Shown piece after piece: positions 1,455 to 11,471 of a stretch of DNA of 11,471 nucleotides. Where the stretch lies: the IMG/VR virus record IMGVR_UViG_2585427783_000001, positions 1 to 11,471 of that record; one strand, 5' to 3'. The translations under genes were made by a program, and so were the position numbers. Origin of the DNA: a virus (Duplodnaviria > Heunggongvirae > Uroviricota > Caudoviricetes). The notes below the pieces were generated by a model. That model had not been told where the DNA came from. It saw only the letters and a list, made by a program, of their open reading frames with translations, and searched no databases. Each line of letters opens with the position of its first letter. The first letter of the stretch is position 1.

Positions 1455-1837
1455 TATAAGAATCCGCTTCTAATTCAAAGCATTACCCCATCAACACTGC
1501 GCTCACACGTCCCACCACATCAAAACATGTAAAGCCTTGCAAGCCATTGCGAGGCTTTATGTGTCTCAGTTTTGTCCCACCTTTTATTACGACTTGCATA
1601 GCCAATGAAGATAAACGTGACGACAAACGGCGCAGCAATCTTCCTTTCTTTCACACTTTCCCAACCCAGCATGTATACTTTTCTGCCATAACTAAAGTGA
1701 ATGCCTGTTATGAGCAACAAACAGGCATTAGCGCCGCTAGCATATTAGCTACCATTCGACTGCCACACTTAAGATTGATTTCTTAAGTATAACCCGGTTT
1801 CTAATACTACTTATATATTCAGCTCTGAGATTCATTT

Positions 1838-4800
1838 TTATCTCGTAAAGCTAGTTTTATGACTTCCTGTTAGCTGACTGTCTTCATAATAAAATGCTCC
1901 ACTAAACTCCTGTCGACCATAATGATGACTTGATATGAGTGAGCCCCCTATAACGCCCTTTTCACCTAATAATGTCCAAACGATTTCAAAACCATTGTCC
2001 CTTAACATTGTTAAAAATGGTTCTTTTTTAACAAGTAGATGCGGCTTTGAAGCATATACAGCTTCAGCTGCAAAGCAAACCATAGTTCCATTTTCATCAT
2101 TGAAGCTACCCTCTACTTCCCCACTTTTTAATCCCATCTTTTCAAAGATTAAGTTACTAGGCTTCAAAAAATTCAAAGTTTCTATTTTTGATTTGTCGAA
2201 CTCCTCTTCCCACAAATAATTAATCGAAGTGACACTAACATCAGCTATCTTAGCTCCAGACTCCCGGTCTGTTACCGAAGTCCAGTCAGATCCACCATAA
2301 TAATCTGATTTAAAAGACTTAAATGCTTCGGACCAATAGTACTCCCTATTAAATAATTGGTATCTATCAGTACATTCCGGCATCCACCTGCCCATAAAGT
2401 CTTGAGCTATTGCCCAACATCTAAAATTTTCAAATTCTTCAACTTTAACGATATAACTTCTGATCTGATACCAAACCTCTTTTCGTGGGTGCCCCCAATC
2501 ATCGTTTCCAATAATTTTTGGTTCTTTCCATGATGGATGACTTTCTAATACTATCCATTCATCACCATTATCATCTTTAACTTCAATAAAAGCATATGAA
2601 TTAGTTATAGTAGTAGAACTTTTAACCCAGTCTTCATTAGAGCAAGTCCAATCAAACACTTCATCATTAAGCCACCACATTTCTTTATTGCTTATTTTTT
2701 TCGTTCCAGTTTCTTTAAGTAAGATAGTGGGATCTATATCTCTTACGTAAGGCTCCCATGGCCCTTGGTATGGATTTTCCTTTCGTTCGTCACCATAACC
2801 TTCAAAACGAGTAAAATTATCGGCTAGCCTTGCCATGTATTCATAATAAGCAATCCATTGGTATTTTTTACCAATCCGTTCTTGGAATGCCTCTCTACGT
2901 CCACGTCCAGTTCCTATTTGTTGGTCAAAATTACCATGCTTCTCCGGATCCCAACCAAGCTCTATAACACGATTGAATATAAATTGTTGAGCTAGTCGAA
3001 GATCAAAGTGTTTATCAGTTTCCAGCAGATTATTATTATGATCCAGGTATGGCTCTATTTCATTTTCAAACTCACTTAACAGATCGTATGACAATGAATT
3101 CTTAAATAATTTCTTGCTCGCCTTTATTTCTTCCTGTGCTTTTCTACCGACCACACGACCAAATTTAATTCCTTCGCATTTATCATCATAAATGAAAGGA
3201 TCTGTGGCATCATACAAGTCTTTTTGTTGATCAGTTAGTTTACATTTGAAAGTTTTAAAAACTTGCTTACGGTCAACAGGGGTTTCATTAAACTTGCAAC
3301 CAGACCAATCAGAATGATTATAATTTGTTCCAATAGTATATCGTGAAAAGTCACCATCTTCCATAATAGAGCTCCAGAGTTCCCGATAAGGTTCTTTATC
3401 ATAAAGGGACTCTAGTTCCTCTTTTGAAGGAATCTTGTCAGGCCAAATGCTGTTGTAGGGTGGTCTAGTCTTGGATAATTCAATGCTTTCAAGTTCCAAT
3501 CCAAGATGATTAGCAAATTCAATAATCTCTCTAGCATAATCTCTAAGTAATATATTTGGATACACATACTTAGAACAAAATACCTTTTGGTAAACAGTTT
3601 CGGCTAAATATTTTAGTTCTTTAATATTATCAGTTCGCAATGTACAGCCTAATGCAACTGCAAATATTCTTTCCCAAACGTAAGGATCATTTACACCATA
3701 AAACTTATCAATTATTTTTCTCAATACAGGAATTCTTGGCTCGAGTAAACTCACTAAAGCCTTAGTTGAGCAATCTCGAAGTTCTCGGTTACTAGAAGTT
3801 AAAAACCAGCATAAACTAGTTGCAACTAGCTCGATTGACTCATCCGAAACAAAGCTTTTATCTGTTCTGGCCCATGCCCAATCGATTAGATGCCTAAATG
3901 CTGAGTCTTCACTATATTTATATTTAAGTTCTGTAGTCCAAAACGAATCTCGATTTGCCAAAGAATAATCTTTTAGCCAATCATGCAAGAAATTAGCATT
4001 AAAGGGATGGCCAACTAAACCTGAAATAGAGATCACTGCCTCGAGGAAATGATCAAAACTATCTTTAAATTTAAAAACATGTTCATTGATGAAAGGTCTA
4101 ATTTTTTCGAAATAAATAGCCTTAATATCGCGCCATATCAAGCTATCAATAAAGGCTTCTAGTAATTTAAGATTATTGCTGAACTCCGGCAGAAATTCAT
4201 AAAGCTCTTTTTCATACCTTTCTGGCAATTGAATAGACAACGCCTCTACTATTCCCGATTTTATATAAAAATCACATTCATCATGAAAATATTTTTTCAG
4301 ACGACCATCAGGCTTAAATTCACTTTCGATATTTTCAACATCATTTAATAAAAAATTAACAGTTAAATGATCATCAAACCTTTCAAAAGCCACATAAACT
4401 ACTTCCTCAGTAGAATTATCATCATTTCTCACTATGCCTTTAGTCAATAATCCTTCGTCAATCAAGGCGCTGAGGAAGGTTTTATCAGCAACATAATCAT
4501 TAACTACAGATTGAACCACTGAGTGAGCATCTTTAAGTGAAATACTATTACGACCAATCTCTAATTTGAATTTTATGATTTCATTGAGAGCATCTTTAAC
4601 AAGAGGAAAACTGGGATCGAATGCATATTTTTTTGGCGATGCTAATGATTTATTTACCCCTTCAACTAAAAAGTTAAAAATATTTGAAATCCCATTAAAT
4701 CCAACAGGCACTTTGGTTAAACCATTTTTCTTAATGCCTTCACACAATAACTTAAGAAATAGAGGATTTTTAAACTCTGGATTAAGGTTAGGAGATGAAG

Positions 4801-5443
4801 GCCTCTCAATATTGTAATAATCATAAAATAGACTAACCGCTTCCAACTCAACGTTCTGGAATCCAATATGTTCATGAATTTCAAAATTATTTCGCACAAC
4901 ATTCTCATGTGAAATTGTTACATTTCTATATGTTGTTCTGACTGACATTATCAGACCAAGCCATTCAAAGCATCTGATTTCATCGACAAAACTGTTAATA
5001 TTGTCATTCCAGAATTTATTTCCATTACCTTCATTAATAGCATCAATAAAAACTAAGACTCTTTTTCCTGTTTTTTTGCCATATAAATTCAGTTTTTCTA
5101 GGAATTCACGAGAAGTGATTTTAAGCTGTAATCTCTTGAAGATTTGTGACCATGGAGATTCATCTGAAGTAAGTTGTTGCCCTAGTATGAGTAGTGAAGG
5201 ATACCCAGAAGCAATTCGATTTTTAATCACATCAGCCAGTAAATGAGACTTACCAATTCCTGCTTTTCCTTCGAGAAGTAAGAATGGGTTGTTAGCCAAC
5301 TTCACTGTTGTTGAATTAATGAATATACGTAATTCATTGCACGCATAGTCAAATTCCCGAAGCATTCGCAGAGTAGATGAATACTTATCACTGTAATGCT
5401 TGGTTTCACCTACTTGCTCTGACTTTTCTCGGAGTTCCCACAA
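1838..5443 (-). CDS. Large P-loop NTPase of the STAND class (NACHT/NB-ARC-like) with a ~1000-aa unassigned C-terminal region; candidate antiphage protein
   Basis: Uninterrupted 1201-codon ORF. Walker A GKAGIGKS (aa 59-66, nt 5246-5269), Walker B-like hhhhDxxxE VLVFIDAINE (aa 129-138) and sensor-1-like IMSVRTT (aa 165-171) occur in the order and spacing typical of STAND NTPases. Low GC. The start codon is uncertain: the track uses a TTG at 5443, and the first in-frame ATG is codon 27 at 5365. Confidence 0.8.
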   Translation of the reverse strand: MWELREKSEQVGETKHYSDKYSSTLRMLREFDYACNELRIFINSTTVKLANNPFLLLEGKAGIGKSHLLADVIKNRIASGYPSLLILGQQLTSDESPWSQIFKRLQLKITSREFLEKLNLYGKKTGKRVLVFIDAINEGNGNKFWNDNINSFVDEIRCFEWLGLIMSVRTTYRNVTISHENVVRNNFEIHEHIGFQNVELEAVSLFYDYYNIERPSSPNLNPEFKNPLFLKLLCEGIKKNGLTKVPVGFNGISNIFNFLVEGVNKSLASPKKYAFDPSFPLVKDALNEIIKFKLEIGRNSISLKDAHSVVQSVVNDYVADKTFLSALIDEGLLTKGIVRNDDNSTEEVVYVAFERFDDHLTVNFLLNDVENIESEFKPDGRLKKYFHDECDFYIKSGIVEALSIQLPERYEKELYEFLPEFSNNLKLLEAFIDSLIWRDIKAIYFEKIRPFINEHVFKFKDSFDHFLEAVISISGLVGHPFNANFLHDWLKDYSLANRDSFWTTELKYKYSEDSAFRHLIDWAWARTDKSFVSDESIELVATSLCWFLTSSNRELRDCSTKALVSLLEPRIPVLRKIIDKFYGVNDPYVWERIFAVALGCTLRTDNIKELKYLAETVYQKVFCSKYVYPNILLRDYAREIIEFANHLGLELESIELSKTRPPYNSIWPDKIPSKEELESLYDKEPYRELWSSIMEDGDFSRYTIGTNYNHSDWSGCKFNETPVDRKQVFKTFKCKLTDQQKDLYDATDPFIYDDKCEGIKFGRVVGRKAQEEIKASKKLFKNSLSYDLLSEFENEIEPYLDHNNNLLETDKHFDLRLAQQFIFNRVIELGWDPEKHGNFDQQIGTGRGRREAFQERIGKKYQWIAYYEYMARLADNFTRFEGYGDERKENPYQGPWEPYVRDIDPTILLKETGTKKISNKEMWWLNDEVFDWTCSNEDWVKSSTTITNSYAFIEVKDDNGDEWIVLESHPSWKEPKIIGNDDWGHPRKEVWYQIRSYIVKVEEFENFRCWAIAQDFMGRWMPECTDRYQLFNREYYWSEAFKSFKSDYYGGSDWTSVTDRESGAKIADVSVTSINYLWEEEFDKSKIETLNFLKPSNLIFEKMGLKSGEVEGSFNDENGTMVCFAAEAVYASKPHLLVKKEPFLTMLRDNGFEIVWTLLGEKGVIGGSLISSHHYGRQEFSGAFYYEDSQLTGSHKTSFTR

Positions 5444-5536
5444 TATTGATACCGCTCCGCCAATAGCTGTCTGGCAGCTAGAAACATAGTTATTAAATTT
5501 ATTTATAGGGATTTCATCTAATTTAGAAAAATTAAT

Positions 5537-6292
5537 CTACTGATATATATCAGAAATTTCTTTTAAGGACTGATTTATTTCAAATAATTCTGAGGAAATT
5601 ACATCGCAACTATGTAATTTCTTTCCAGCGACCAGAAAGCTATCTATATGCGAATAAAATATTTTAGAAAAATCATTAGTTCTACCGAGGCCATCAAATA
5701 TCTCTGCTATTTCTAGCTTTACGTTGAGTTCGGGTGTGTATCGACCTCCCAAGTCAGCTATTGCTTGACTATTTTTTTCATTTAACCAATCATCACTTAA
5801 GTGAAAAGTTAGTTTCTCATCTATAGACCGTAAAATAAGTTTGACTTGAATGAGCTCTTCATTAATATCGAATATTTTTTCTTTATACGTTTCTTCGATA
5901 TGTAGCTTTTTTAACTTCGAACAATTATTGATTTTTAATGATAACATCCCATAAAAAAGGCTGAGTTGTTGTTGAGTTGGGGGAGTGACGCTTGGATATT
6001 CTTTGAACTTGTCTAATAACATCTCTTTGTCAGGGAACTCTTTAAAAAGGATGTACTCATTCAACATCTCAAACAATGGTTTAGAATGATAAAATGGAAT
6101 TGCTCCACTTTCTACTGGATATGTTTCTTCAAACTCAATTGCCGTCTCTTCAATTAGTTGATATAATCTATCCACATATTTTTCTGTGGGGAATAATGCT
6201 TTCTTAATCCAACTATATCCTTCTTGAGAAATGAATTGATCAATAAGTTTAGTTGCTACATAAGTTGCCACTGTAATTGATATGGGTTCCAT
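5537..6292 (-). CDS. Hypothetical protein (251 aa), upstream partner of the STAND NTPase; possible detached effector or N-terminal domain
   Basis: ATG at 6292 is preceded by GGGAGA about 8 nt upstream, a good Shine-Dalgarno. Same strand and same frame as the downstream NTPase gene, low GC. I see no catalytic motif in the translation. Confidence 0.7.
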   Translation of the reverse strand: MEPISITVATYVATKLIDQFISQEGYSWIKKALFPTEKYVDRLYQLIEETAIEFEETYPVESGAIPFYHSKPLFEMLNEYILFKEFPDKEMLLDKFKEYPSVTPPTQQQLSLFYGMLSLKINNCSKLKKLHIEETYKEKIFDINEELIQVKLILRSIDEKLTFHLSDDWLNEKNSQAIADLGGRYTPELNVKLEIAEIFDGLGRTNDFSKIFYSHIDSFLVAGKKLHSCDVISSELFEINQSLKEISDIYQ

Positions 6293-6460
6293 GATTAGCT
6301 TCTCCCAACAATTAAATTTTTACCAAGCGTTTATGCTTTCCAATAATTATTACATCTCACCGTAAAACATATTTATATGGTTTTAAACCTATCTATAAAT
6401 CTTGACACCTTGGCAAGAACCTAATCCTACATTTTAATATCAATCTATATAATATCGCCA
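6293..6460 (-). promoter_or_regulatory. AT-rich upstream region likely holding the promoter for the 251-aa ORF / STAND NTPase operon
   Basis: Non-coding AT-rich stretch directly upstream of the first gene of the minus-strand pair. Several weak -10/-35-like hexamers are present, for example TATAAA on the minus strand near 6373-6378. No element can be placed with confidence. Confidence 0.25.
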
Positions 6461-6814
6461 GCGTCATAATAATCGGGCTTGTCATAGTTAAGTATTCGCC
6501 TCCGATATCCCAATGAGATAAGTAAGTCATAAGTGTTATAAATGAAAAGGTTACATTTTTCAAAGAGTTATTATGATGGAATATTATTCAAAACGCAATG
6601 TAGCTGAAACGAGTCTGAGTTTAACATCCGCTCCTAGTACATAGTAGTCCTAGGGACAGTGGCGTAAAGTCATAGATGGCCGGTGGGAGGTGATGGAAAT
6701 CCTCTCATGCAAAAAATACATAAAATCGATAACGGCTGGAAATCATTCAATACTCGCACTATCGAAAGTTCACCAGCCAACCGCGCACAATCTTGCATAC
6801 GACATGCTACGGTT

Positions 6815-7369
6815 TCATTTATCTCCGACCGGAAACTTCTTATACAGTGTCGATATACCAACATCATAGATGATCGCCACCTTCTGGCGAGGAACGCCTG
6901 ATGCAATTAATCGCCCGGCCTGCGCCCATTGTTCTGGTGTAAGTTTGGGACGACGTCCCCCAATTCGTCCCTGTGCGCGAGCAGCTTCCAGTCCAGCTTT
7001 TGTTCGTTCAACAATCAGTTCTCGTTCCATTTCAGCCAGGGCACCCATCACATGAAAGAAAAAACGCCCCATCGGTGTGCTGGTATCAATAGCATCCGTC
7101 AGGCTGCGAAAATTAACGCCACGTTCGCGCAACTCCTCAACCAGAATGACCAGATGCCGCATACTACGCCCCAGCCGATCCAGTTTCCAGACCACCAGAG
7201 TGTCACCTGCCGATAATGTCCTGAGCAGTTTTTTCAGTCCCGGTCTTTCGGACTTCGTACCGCTTATCTTGTCTTCAAAAATCAGTTCACATCCTACACA
7301 GTTCAACGCATTACGTTGTAGATCGGTGTTCTGGTCATTTGTTGATACGCGAACATAGCCAATAAGCAT
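6815..7369 (-). CDS. pin: Serine DNA invertase of the Pin/Gin/Hin/Cin family
   Basis: Translation MLIGYVRVSTNDQNTDLQRNAL...DTLVVWKLDRLGRSMRHLV...[28 protein letters not shown]...GRIGGRRPKLT... is a canonical small serine recombinase with catalytic Ser in YVRVST and a C-terminal helix-turn-helix. The ATG at 7369 has GGGGGA about 6 nt upstream. The ORF track begins 12 codons earlier (MASFLLLPGGST), probably not the real start. Confidence 0.9.
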   Translation of the reverse strand: MLIGYVRVSTNDQNTDLQRNALNCVGCELIFEDKISGTKSERPGLKKLLRTLSAGDTLVVWKLDRLGRSMRHLVILVEELRERGVNFRSLTDAIDTSTPMGRFFFHVMGALAEMERELIVERTKAGLEAARAQGRIGGRRPKLTPEQWAQAGRLIASGVPRQKVAIIYDVGISTLYKKFPVGDK

Positions 7370-7455
7370 GGTAGATCCCCCAGGTAAAAGCAGGAATGAT
7401 GCCATTTGCTCGTTATTTCTGCATTTTCATAAACCTTGGTTTGGGAGAAGGTGCT
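7041..7455. repeat. Left arm of a ~415-bp inverted repeat (invertase 5' region plus crossover site)
   Basis: Reverse complement of 9164-9578 aligns base for base with 7041-7455 (coordinate sum 16619) with only a few mismatches: two amino-acid changes in the invertase and CC versus TG inside the crossover site. The right arm is cut at 9578 by IS100, so the original repeat may have been longer. Confidence 0.8.
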
Positions 7456-7893
7456 CCAGCTATTGGCGTTCCGTTCTTCTGGCCGTCCGCTGCAATGCCA
7501 AATACTGTAATCGACAGCTGGTCCAGTATGGTGTTTTTGAAGTTCAACGGCGCGAAATTCTCTGCCACTGATTATCCTGTGCTGGCGAAAGTGTTTCCTT
7601 CGCTGGTATTACCTGAAGCCCGCGGTGATTTCATTCGTATCTGGGATGACGGGCGAGGTGCAGACGGTGGTCGCGAATTATTAAGCTGGCAGGCAGCTAC
7701 AAACTTTTCTCAGTTTGCCGGGAATATAGGCGAAGGTGCGGGACACGCAATTAACTTTCATGATGGCATCGCCGGAAATCAGCCAGGATTTTCACGATTT
7801 AATTTCACCAGTAACTCTGTGGGTGATGGTGTGAATTTTGTTGCTGTCAGACCGCGAAATATTGCATTTAACTTTCTGGTGAGGGCTAAATAA
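7396..7893 (+). CDS. Tail-fibre C-terminal variable-domain cassette (Sv-like); lacks the constant N-terminal part
   Basis: Gly/Asn-rich translation ending ...RPRNIAFNFLVRAK, like side-tail-fibre C-termini. Its stop overlaps the start of the following tfa gene (TAATG). The first ~10 codons (MMPFARYFCIFIN) lie inside the inverted repeat, antisense to the invertase leader. There is a stop at 7372-7374 and no upstream tail-fibre constant region. Confidence 0.7.
   Translation: MMPFARYFCIFINLGLGEGAPAIGVPFFWPSAAMPNTVIDSWSSMVFLKFNGAKFSATDYPVLAKVFPSLVLPEARGDFIRIWDDGRGADGGRELLSWQAATNFSQFAGNIGEGAGHAINFHDGIAGNQPGFSRFNFTSNSVGDGVNFVAVRPRNIAFNFLVRAK
7424..7449. other. Invertase crossover site, left (gix/hix/cix/pix-like 26-bp site)
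   Basis: TTTTCATAAACC-TT-GGTTTGGGAGAA resembles the recalled hix/gix consensus TTATCAAAAACC-NN-GGTTTTTGATAA (imperfect palindromic half-sites). It sits exactly at the junction between the inverted repeat and unique DNA. Confidence 0.55.
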
Positions 7894-8486
7894 TGAAACC
7901 TGTTTTTGATGAAAATGGGCTGGCTACAGTGCCGGGCGATATGCGTTGTTTTTATTATGATGCTGAAACATCTGAGTATACGGGCTGGTCTGATGAATAT
8001 ATTAATACTGGCGTAAGTATGCCCGCCTGTTCCACTGGTATTGACCCTGGCGAAAACATTCCGGGAAGAGTGGCAGTATTTACAGGTAAGGGATGGCGCC
8101 ATGAAGAAGACCATCGCAATGAGACTGTTTACTTAATCGAAAATGGCGCAGCTGTTACAGTGGATTATATCGGTGCCATCAAAGACGGTTATGTCACGAT
8201 TTCACCGTTAACGCCATACGATAAATGGGATGGTGAGAAATGGGTGACAGACACTGAGGCACAACACAGTGCCGCAGTAGACGCGGCAGAAGCACAGCGC
8301 CAGTCACTGATTGATGCAGCAATGGCTTCCATTAGTCTGATTCAGCTGAAATTACAGGCCGGACGGAAACTGACTCAGGCAGAAACAACCCGACTTAACG
8401 CCGTGCTGGATTACATTGACGCGGTGACGGCAACAGATACCAGCACCGCGCCGGATATCATCTGGCCTGAACTGCCGGAGGCGTAG
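7893..8486 (+). CDS. tfa: Tail-fibre assembly protein (Tfa/U-like chaperone)
   Basis: 197 aa with blocks ...AVFTGKGWRHEEDHRNETVY...YDKWDGEKWVTDTEAQ... and the C-terminal DTSTAPDIIWPELP motif shared by lambda Tfa / Mu U-type proteins. Translationally coupled to the preceding cassette. Confidence 0.85.
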   Translation: MKPVFDENGLATVPGDMRCFYYDAETSEYTGWSDEYINTGVSMPACSTGIDPGENIPGRVAVFTGKGWRHEEDHRNETVYLIENGAAVTVDYIGAIKDGYVTISPLTPYDKWDGEKWVTDTEAQHSAAVDAAEAQRQSLIDAAMASISLIQLKLQAGRKLTQAETTRLNAVLDYIDAVTATDTSTAPDIIWPELPEA

Positions 8487-8886
8487 GCCATTCAATATCG
8501 GGTGCTGTTGACGTATCAACACGCATCAGCAGCACACGGTATTTCTTCCATTGGGTGAGAGTTGTAGCTTCTTCATCAGTTGCGATATCAGCATCAACAG
8601 CATCCTGACGCCAGGATATTTCACTGTCAGCTTTTTCCCGTAATTGGGATTTTTTAACTTCAGCAATAGCTATTAATTCCTTTTTGGTCGGCTGAGGAAT
8701 ATCTATCAGTGCTGGTTTTCCATTCAGTGTTCCAATCTGTTTTCCTGGTGGAATATCCATAAATAACTTCTTATGTTCTTCCTCACTGACTATTACACCA
8801 TCATCAGGCCACAGACCTGATGCCTCAAATTTTTCTTTCTCCGATATGGGGAAAAAGCCATTTGCTTTAGCGCTCCATACGTACAT
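8458..8886 (-). CDS. tfa: Tail-fibre assembly protein, alternative copy (Tfa/U'-like)
   Basis: 142 aa ending ...WKKYRVLLMRVDTSTAPDIEWPTPP, the same C-terminal motif as the forward copy. Start is adjacent to the stop of the reverse tail-fibre cassette. Its 3' end overlaps the forward tfa by 29 bp. Confidence 0.8.
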   Translation of the reverse strand: MYVWSAKANGFFPISEKEKFEASGLWPDDGVIVSEEEHKKLFMDIPPGKQIGTLNGKPALIDIPQPTKKELIAIAEVKKSQLREKADSEISWRQDAVDADIATDEEATTLTQWKKYRVLLMRVDTSTAPDIEWPTPPAVQAR

Positions 8887-8887
8887 A

Positions 8888-9223
8888 TCAATACCCCACC
8901 GCTATAATGTCCACATTAAATCCCCCGGGACCTGCCTGCCAGATGCTGGCCCCTGTTAATGATTTTGTTTGATGAACAACCGCCACATTTGCTGGCGATT
9001 GTGTTTCAGTTGTTACAGTACCGATATCATTCCAGTTAATTGAGATGGAATAGTTCGTTGTTGTAAACGACCGGGGGAAAGTTATGTGTCTTACATTGGT
9101 GCCGACAGGAAATCCAAGATAAACACGCTGAATTATCATTCCTCCAGGTAACATAACCCAGTTAGCACCTTCTCCAAAACCAACATTTATGAAAATGCAG
9201 AAATAACGAGCAAATGGCATCAT
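8888..9223 (-). CDS. Alternative tail-fibre C-terminal variable-domain cassette (Sv'-like); lacks the constant part
   Basis: Mirror-image partner of the forward cassette, beginning inside the right repeat arm with the same MMPFARYFCIFIN leader and then diverging (...GEGANWVMLPGG...NVDIIAVGY). Directly followed by the reverse tfa gene. Confidence 0.65.
   Translation of the reverse strand: MMPFARYFCIFINVGFGEGANWVMLPGGMIIQRVYLGFPVGTNVRHITFPRSFTTTNYSISINWNDIGTVTTETQSPANVAVVHQTKSLTGASIWQAGPGGFNVDIIAVGY
9170..9195. other. Invertase crossover site, right (inverted relative to the left site)
   Basis: TTCTCCAAAACC-AA-CATTTATGAAAA is the reverse complement of the left site apart from two central bases, and sits at the junction of repeat and unique DNA. 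Confidence 0.55.
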
Positions 9224-9249
9224 TCCTGCTTTTACCTGGGGGATCTACC

Positions 9250-11471
<2,222 letters not shown>

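Follow-up and report, generated by a model that had tools for sequence, protein, structure and literature searches.

The terminase sensor of EcAvs2 in an avs2 allele most likely inactivated recently by a premature amber codon

The window analyzed here, the 11,471-nt stretch of the IMG/VR virus record IMGVR_UViG_2585427783_000001, carries on its minus strand an ORF at 1838..5443 encoding 1201 amino acids, which correspond to codons 284-1484 of avs2. A second ORF at 5537..6292 lies upstream in the same frame, with only one TAG between the two, so that the 1201-aa ORF, taken in the earlier note for a whole STAND protein, is one piece of a longer gene. The region in question, 1838-4860 on the minus strand, covers Avs2 residues 478-1484 and the terminal stop codon. 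The features of the locus, in full-length residue numbering, are as follows:

1838..6292, minus strand: avs2 gene, 1484 codons plus TAA, with one in-frame TAG at codon 252 (both ORFs in the same frame)
5540..6292, minus strand: N-terminal effector and start of the Avs2-specific helical extension, residues 1-251 (PADLOC PDLC02164 matches residues 22-250)
5537..5539, minus strand: amber TAG replacing GAG (Glu252), E252*, from comparison with E. coli FORC_031
5246..5269, minus strand: Walker A motif GKAGIGKS, residues 342-349 (with K348), read from the sequence
5030..5059, minus strand: probable Walker B region VLVFIDAINE, residues 412-421, placed by the hhhhD pattern of STAND NTPases
4337..4861, minus strand: helical domain 1 and winged-helix domain, residues 478-652 (AF2 model; approximate boundaries)
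2816..4336, minus strand: irregular alpha-helical TPR-like domain, residues 653-1159 (DSSP of the AF2 model; approximate boundaries)
2891..2914, minus strand: GTGRGRRE loop, residues 1127-1134, with T1128, R1130, and R1132 present
1841..2815, minus strand: beta-strand-rich, Trp-rich C-terminal sensor (CTD), residues 1160-1484 (DSSP of the models)
2570..2593, minus strand: AFIEVKDD, residues 1234-1241, a candidate E-x-K site rejected as a nuclease site

Scanning the whole window with Rfam models and for tRNAs returned nothing, and promoter and terminator consensus sites were no more numerous than in shuffled sequence, so that no avs2 promoter was identified.

Both pieces of the gene were matched in register by the NCBIfam and PADLOC models for Avs2. 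The 1201-aa ORF scored 1594 bits against the NCBIfam equivalog NF041813, for which the cut-off is 1000 bits, with ORF residues 7-1193 aligned to model positions 120-1317, while the ORF at 5537..6292 matched model positions 1-72; the PADLOC Avs2 model PDLC02164 scored 1598 bits over residues 1-1200 of the 1201-aa ORF. Among PDB sequences, the EcAvs2 chain 9o4e_A aligned at 2799 bits, with ORF residues 1-1201 corresponding to chain residues 284-1484. The upstream piece, searched with X in place of the stop codon, aligned to residues 1-317 of the same chain, which has E at position 252. In the region itself, the published EcAvs2 (PDB 9O4E) differs by one visible residue, D727Y (PMC13601566). The terminase sensor of EcAvs2 is thus an already known protein region with a solved structure, and only the premature stop makes this locus unusual.

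An AF2 model of the region (mean pLDDT 83.9, pTM 0.83) shows an alpha-solenoid that gives way to a beta-rich end. Domain boundaries rest on the secondary structure of this model because the Foldseek PDB library, with a release cutoff of 2026-04-08, does not contain 9O4E. Residues 478-652 form helices followed by a beta-hairpin (strands 139-145 and 151-157 in model numbering), and their Foldseek matches include NLRC4 and a STAND-TPR protein, so that the region begins while still inside the STAND module. The earlier note had counted about 1000 residues past the NTPase module: a sensor region does follow, but the first ~175 residues belong to the STAND module, which leaves a sensor proper of about 830 residues. 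The helical domain that comes next, which contains a mixed alpha/beta insert around residues 983-1090 and is called the TPR domain in the EcAvs2 structure paper (PMC13601566), is TPR-like at the level of structure only. As modeled, the region therefore has the TPR-like helical domain and, after it, the beta-rich sensor that is common to Avs1-3. For the whole region, the best Foldseek match was SeAvs3 (PDB 8dgc, E = 3e-6), followed by HEAT, ARM, and TPR solenoids; for the CTD alone, 8dgc was the sole significant PDB match (probability 1.00, TMq 0.41).

The key residues of EcAvs2 are in place. Upstream of the region, the Walker A lysine K348, whose replacement by alanine abolishes defense in EcAvs2 (PMC13601566), and a Walker B sequence (VLVFID, residues 412-417) together identify a STAND NTPase; Pfam gave weak, sub-threshold nSTAND6, NACHT, and NB-ARC matches at the P-loop. 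According to cryo-EM, the bridging ATP and that of the terminase are held in place by T1128, R1130, and R1132 (PMC13601566); among 38 homologs, R1130 and R1132 are invariant and position 1128 is T or S in 37. The terminase contacts W1266, E1362, E1364, E1444, and E1462 in the CTD are 92-100% conserved in the same set. Adding K348 and D981 to these eight positions, all ten residues are present and 84-100% conserved, and every published terminase- and ATP-contact residue was found in the window protein.

A mechanism has been shown for EcAvs2. An alpha-helical TPR domain and a beta-rich C-terminal sensor form a pocket in which the ATPase domain of the large terminase subunit of the phage is bound, and a third, bridging ATP, kept in place by D981, T1128, R1132, and E1364, closes it; the same pocket is used by Ksap1 and possibly by T4 vs.8 (PMC13601566). 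Terminase binding leads to ATP-dependent tetramerization via the STAND domains, which brings the four ATPase-domain N-termini close together; the effector is not resolved in the structure, and its own tetramerization is a suggestion of AlphaFold 3 only (PMC13601566). EcAvs2 becomes toxic to cells in which its trigger is expressed alongside it, and both terminase-triggered oligomerization and phage defense were shown for the protein with E252 (PMC13601566).

The window copy does not encode this polypeptide in one piece. Relative to the intact avs2 of E. coli FORC_031 (WP_001394806.1), it differs by 2 nt over 4455 nt, and one of these differences, A in place of C at plus-strand base 5539, creates E252*. 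A single uninterrupted effector-NTPase-sensor polypeptide is required for function, though not for homology; with an in-frame TAG at codon 252, the locus is a nonsense allele and probable pseudogene of avs2, not a non-member of the family. The NCBIfam Avs2 match begins at residue 178, so that the conserved core starts at or before this position and the stop lies inside it; no Pfam domain was found in residues 1-251. Since E252* falls within the conserved core and upstream of Walker A, the effector would no longer be joined to the NTPase and sensor. The same allele was found at six loci in six assemblies with 0-1 further nucleotide differences; the identical 251-aa product occurs on 15 contigs, and TAG occupies codon 252 in all six retrieved loci, which come from five NCBI assemblies and one Logan run. 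In a set of 5,426 complete E. coli genomes the allele did not occur. Among the 88 of these genomes with an avs2 match, 87 have the gene at ≥80% coverage, and it is uninterrupted in both complete genomes examined, FORC_031 and SCEC020001. This recurrence in at least six assemblies, together with the absence from complete genomes, suggests that the window copy is probably inactive, although translation of the downstream fragment of 1201-1232 aa would still be possible, with starts called by gene finders at ATT253 or TTG284, the latter with GGAG 11 nt upstream.

The reading that accounts best for these results (probability roughly 0.93) is that the region is the C-terminal two thirds of EcAvs2 and that the E252* copy most likely lost its activity recently. 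Downstream of the stop the sequence carries no additional mutations, and with 1-2 nt separating the allele from the intact gene, this lack of decay would reflect recency.

The alternatives that survive best would keep the allele functional. The two pieces could constitute a split system, in which a 251-aa effector and a 1201-1232-aa NTPase-sensor protein reassemble non-covalently, or the amber codon could be read through at a useful rate. Persistence of the allele in several assemblies with an undamaged downstream part would fit this, as would the possible restarts right after the stop and at TTG284, and a split-TPR variant of Avs1 that has been mentioned offers a precedent for split Avs proteins (PMC13601566). 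However, the undamaged downstream part would be explained by recency, given the near-identity to the intact gene, the stop does not coincide with a domain boundary but interrupts a helical extension conserved in the family, and deletion of the corresponding insertion in Avs2-trypsin abolished defense (bioRxiv 10.64898/2026.08.25.746987). With the allele also missing from the 5,426 complete E. coli genomes, functional reassembly or readthrough is considered improbable. There is a similarly slim chance that E252* is alive either as an effector-less fragment made from an internal start and working alone, for example as a terminase-binding decoy, sponge, or dominant-negative regulator, or, by reassembly of this fragment with the 251-aa effector piece, as a natural two-gene form of Avs2. 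That the stop is a sequencing or assembly error in an otherwise intact gene, as a one-base difference in a draft contig might suggest, is rejected because six independent loci share TAG252 and the same truncated product is encoded on 15 contigs.

Equally remote is the possibility raised in the earlier note that the C-terminal ~1000 residues have an atypical sensor fold not seen before or an effector embedded in them, with a PD-(D/E)xK nuclease as a candidate that the note itself considered too weak to call. Several of the observations behind it were sound. The region is indeed rich in aromatic residues (W 2.7%, Y 5.0%, and F 6.9%, summing to 14.5% versus 11.3% in the upstream part); the beta-rich end reaches 15.7% W+Y+F, with 9 Trp in residues 1201-1300, and many Trp of the region are invariant across the 38 homologs. 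The aromatic stretch beginning HPSWKEPK starts at full-length residue 1252. The reported lack of recognizable repeats likewise stands at the sequence level: Pfam searches of both ORFs at E ≤ 1 found no TPR, HEAT, LRR, or WD40 match and no effector domain, and hhalign comparison of 110-residue profile slices with each other gave probabilities of ≤12%, indicating no internal repeats. Another point in its favor is that the beta-rich end has no significant neighbor in the PDB library searched except Avs3. The general expectation that this part of a STAND defense protein recognizes a phage protein was also correct, the Avs2 CTD being a terminase sensor.

What these observations do not carry is novelty. 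The NCBIfam score of 1594 bits, the near-identity to 9O4E, and the SeAvs3 match of the AF2 model in Foldseek all place the region in a known Avs clade, an outcome that the earlier note itself had named as speaking against its proposal; since the region matches 9O4E as a canonical Avs2 sensor, the idea of an atypical C-terminus is already refuted. Conservation extends along its full length in more than 1000 homologs, with the best 120 of 1234 homologs covering ~100% of it at 50-99% identity, and both published structures assign the TPR domain and CTD binding functions only (PMC13601566; bioRxiv 10.64898/2026.08.25.746987). The D...E-x-K arrangement noted near AFIEVKDD fares no better: E1237 is conserved in 32/38 homologs, but K1239 in only 22/38 (58%), being otherwise N, V, I, or T, and Foldseek with the CTD model returned no nuclease or PD-(D/E)xK fold, with all non-Avs3 matches at E > 0.07. 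A nuclease at this site is rejected on both conservation and fold. Because the region is the characterized EcAvs2 terminase sensor, it offers neither a new sensor fold nor a new effector.

For genome annotation and counts of defense systems in this E. coli lineage, including calls of the PADLOC or DefenseFinder type, the locus should be treated as a probable pseudogene, since the amber codon breaks the 1484-codon avs2. At the same time, the recurring E252* allele represents a natural effector-less variant that may be used to probe the role of the EcAvs2 effector.

Among known systems, EcAvs2 (AVAST type 2, E. coli; PDB 9O4E; Evans et al., Nat Commun 2026, PMC13601566) is the same protein as that of the window, from which it differs by GAG instead of TAG at codon 252 and by 11 effector substitutions in residues 27-115 of the PDB construct. 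SeAvs3 (AVAST type 3, Salmonella enterica, PDB 8DGC), which ranked first among the PDB structures searched, is also a terminase-sensing STAND protein, and the C-terminal sensor is common to EcAvs2 and SeAvs3 and binds the same terminase surface (PMC13601566), although sequence identity is only ~11%. In contrast to EcAvs2, SeAvs3 has a much longer and differently shaped TPR domain, forms an elongated rather than flat tetramer, has a nuclease as its effector, and binds the terminase nuclease domain in its native form (PMC13601566). KpAvs2 from Klebsiella pneumoniae (Bechon et al. 2024, PMC11564622) and Avs2-trypsin (bioRxiv 10.64898/2026.08.25.746987) belong to the same family as EcAvs2 and share its order of STAND, TPR, and CTD, which for Avs2-trypsin comes from an independent structure; in both proteins the CTD is needed to recognize terminase or Ksap proteins (PMC11564622; bioRxiv 10.64898/2026.08.25.746987). 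KpAvs2 carries an Mrr-type nuclease and Avs2-trypsin a trypsin with an MBL partner, both with accessory genes, whereas EcAvs2 has an uncharacterized, probably non-enzymatic effector and stands alone (PMC13601566).

The aromatic-rich stretch at 1838-4860 (minus strand) comprises the last 1007 codons and stop of a 1201-aa ORF and corresponds to residues 478-1484 of full-length Avs2; it is the sensor of this protein, already known and with a solved structure. The avs2 gene is arranged in the window as follows.

1838-5443, minus strand: ORF of 1201 aa, with a mechanically assigned TTG start
5537-6292, minus strand: upstream ORF of 251 aa in the same frame, with in-register Avs2 model matches
5537-5539, minus strand: premature amber TAG in place of GAG at codon 252 (E252*), the sole separation of the two avs2 ORFs

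The 1201-aa ORF scored 1594 bits against the NCBIfam equivalog for Avs2 (NF041813; cut-off, 1000) and up to 1598 bits, at full length, against PADLOC Avs2 models. The sole match in a PDB sequence search was 9o4e_A, "AVAST type 2 anti-phage system protein Avs2" (1484 aa), to residues 284-1484 of which ORF residues 1-1201 aligned with 2799 bits and a single visible substitution, D727Y; the 251-aa ORF aligned to residues 1-251 of the same chain. A search of a large protein collection with residues 478-1484 returned 1234 proteins at E ≤ 1e-5, the best 120 of which are 50-99% identical to it across ~100% of its length, mostly ~1490 aa long and, where named, Avs2. Among 5,426 complete E. coli genomes, 88 carry avs2. 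The general guess of the earlier note, that this region is a sensor, is thus borne out by the NF041813 and 9O4E matches, which identify it as the terminase sensor of Avs2; the suggestion of a new sensor fold or embedded effector is refuted on that note's own terms.

The description of the region as long, aromatic-rich, and free of recognizable repeats was confirmed by composition (14.5% W+Y+F, versus 11.3% upstream), by the lack of any Pfam repeat family matching the ORF even at E ≤ 1, and by profile-profile self-comparison of 110-residue slices, where the probability of internal repeats was ≤12%. Trp accounts for 2.7% of the region, with nine in residues 1201-1300, and many of these Trp residues are invariant across 38 homologues. 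The peptides originally quoted, HPSWKEPK... and AFIEVKDD, start at full-length residues 1252 and 1234, respectively.

Residues 478-1484 were modelled with AlphaFold2 from a 38-sequence alignment (mean pLDDT 83.9, pTM 0.83), and the model contains three successive parts.

Residues ~478-652: helices followed by a beta-hairpin wing, predicted to be the HD1 and winged helix of the STAND module
Residues ~653-1159: almost purely helical stretch with a mixed insert at ~983-1090
Residues ~1160-1484: beta-rich end

The top Foldseek match to this model in the PDB was SeAvs3 (8dgc; E 3e-6, prob 1.00), followed by HEAT, ARM, and TPR solenoids and NLRC4. When the C-terminal 347 residues were modelled alone (pLDDT 74.9), Foldseek matched SeAvs3 only (prob 1.00, TMq 0.41); no other PDB hit reached an E value under 0.07, and nuclease folds were absent from the hits. 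The E-x-K part of the arrangement near AFIEVKDD, raised as a possible nuclease motif, is not conserved: 22 of 38 homologues have K1239, and others have N, V, I, or T at that position.

The 9O4E entry is a 2.3 Å cryo-EM structure of E. coli Avs2 (EcAvs2), which has E252, with the large terminase of phage PhiV-1, where the terminase ATPase domain is held in a TPR/CTD pocket with a third, bridging ATP contacted by D981, T1128, R1132, and E1364; further contacts are R1130, W1266, E1362, E1444, and E1462 (PMC13601566). Terminase-dependent oligomerisation yields a flat C4 tetramer via the ATP-bound STAND domains, and defence is abolished by K348A and by interface mutations in combination; other activators are Ksap1 and, in co-expression, T4 vs.8 (PMC13601566). 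All of these bridging-ATP and terminase-contact residues, plus the Walker A lysine K348, occur in the window protein and are 84-100% conserved in the 38 homologues (51-92% identity), and the window sensor would be expected to bind terminase as in 9O4E. The N-terminal effector of EcAvs2 is not visible in the map; the authors infer that it is non-enzymatic and may tetramerise, and they liken its first 15 residues to amyloid signalling motifs (PMC13601566).

The recurrent E252* allele is the only mildly interesting point. The window, which is the entire contig JOQM01000089.1 (assembly GCA_000714095.1), carries a 4455-nt avs2 with two base differences from the intact annotated gene of E. coli FORC_031 (WP_001394806.1), one synonymous and the other the GAG-to-TAG change that divides avs2 into pieces of 251 aa and 1201-1232 aa. 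Fifteen contigs encode the identical 251-aa product, and TAG occupies codon 252 in six of six retrieved loci (five NCBI assemblies, one Logan run) with 0-1 further nucleotide differences; the allele is therefore real and recent, and probably clonal. It is missing from the 5,426 complete E. coli RefSeq genomes, since the best matches there carry two mismatches. Because the family-conserved core begins at or before residue 178 (NCBIfam) or residue 131 (PADLOC), the stop is placed inside a conserved helical extension, not at the effector/core boundary. Deleting the corresponding insertion abolished defence in Avs2-trypsin (preprint, bioRxiv 10.64898/2026.08.25.746987), and the window copy is most likely inactive: its sensor would bind terminase, but the signal could not reach a covalently attached effector. 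An effector-less NTPase-sensor fragment is conceivable, since candidate restart codons exist (ATT253, TTG284 with GGAG 11 nt upstream, and ATG310).

Compared with the PDB-type allele of E. coli SCEC020001, the window gene has 19 nucleotide differences, 16 of which (11 non-synonymous) fall within a 280-nt effector patch (window 5949-6230, gene nt 63-344, effector residues 27-115) and three in the remaining ~4100 nt, a pattern that suggests either recombination over this patch or diversifying selection acting on the uncharacterised effector.

The avs2 island (window 1500-6500) has 34% GC and its flanks ~50%, consistent with horizontal acquisition, and it sits within a degraded prophage or mobile region.

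1-586: IS66 transposase end
630-1394: integrase fragment
1525-1564, plus strand: hairpin with a near-perfect 18-bp stem and 4-nt loop, then a T-rich tail
6815-7405, minus strand: pin-type serine invertase gene 1
7041-7455 and 9164-9578: 415-nt inverted repeats (97% complementary), the 5′ parts of both invertase genes
7893-9223: tail-fibre assembly and gp53-like genes, bracketed by the repeats
9214-9651, plus strand: pin-type serine invertase gene 2, facing gene 1
9665-10687: IS21 istA, directly after the second invertase copy
10684-11466: IS21 istB, at the right end

The hairpin lies ~270 nt past the avs2 stop, with the integrase fragment on its other side, and is a candidate terminator or recombination site. 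The bracketed stretch resembles an invertible segment for tail-fibre host range in a prophage remnant; invertase gene 2 is missing its HTH end (match to positions 2-121 of the 145-position Resolvase profile). IS elements occupy both contig ends (IS66 transposase left, IS21 istAB right), and the window diverges from FORC_031 from ~9234 on. In SCEC020001 (locus 6001-14855), intact avs2 directly adjoins lambdoid prophage genes for tail fibres and their assembly, alongside the pao operon; thus, avs2 travels as prophage-end cargo in differing genomic contexts.

The match of the isolated C-terminal model to SeAvs3 agrees with the reported C-terminal sensor common to Avs2 and Avs3 (PMC13601566). Likewise, independent work on Avs2-trypsin, in which TPR-CTD deletion causes auto-activation, describes STAND (204-700), TPR (701-1170), and CTD (1171-1461) domains (bioRxiv 10.64898/2026.08.25.746987), an order identical to that in the model of the window Avs2 region.
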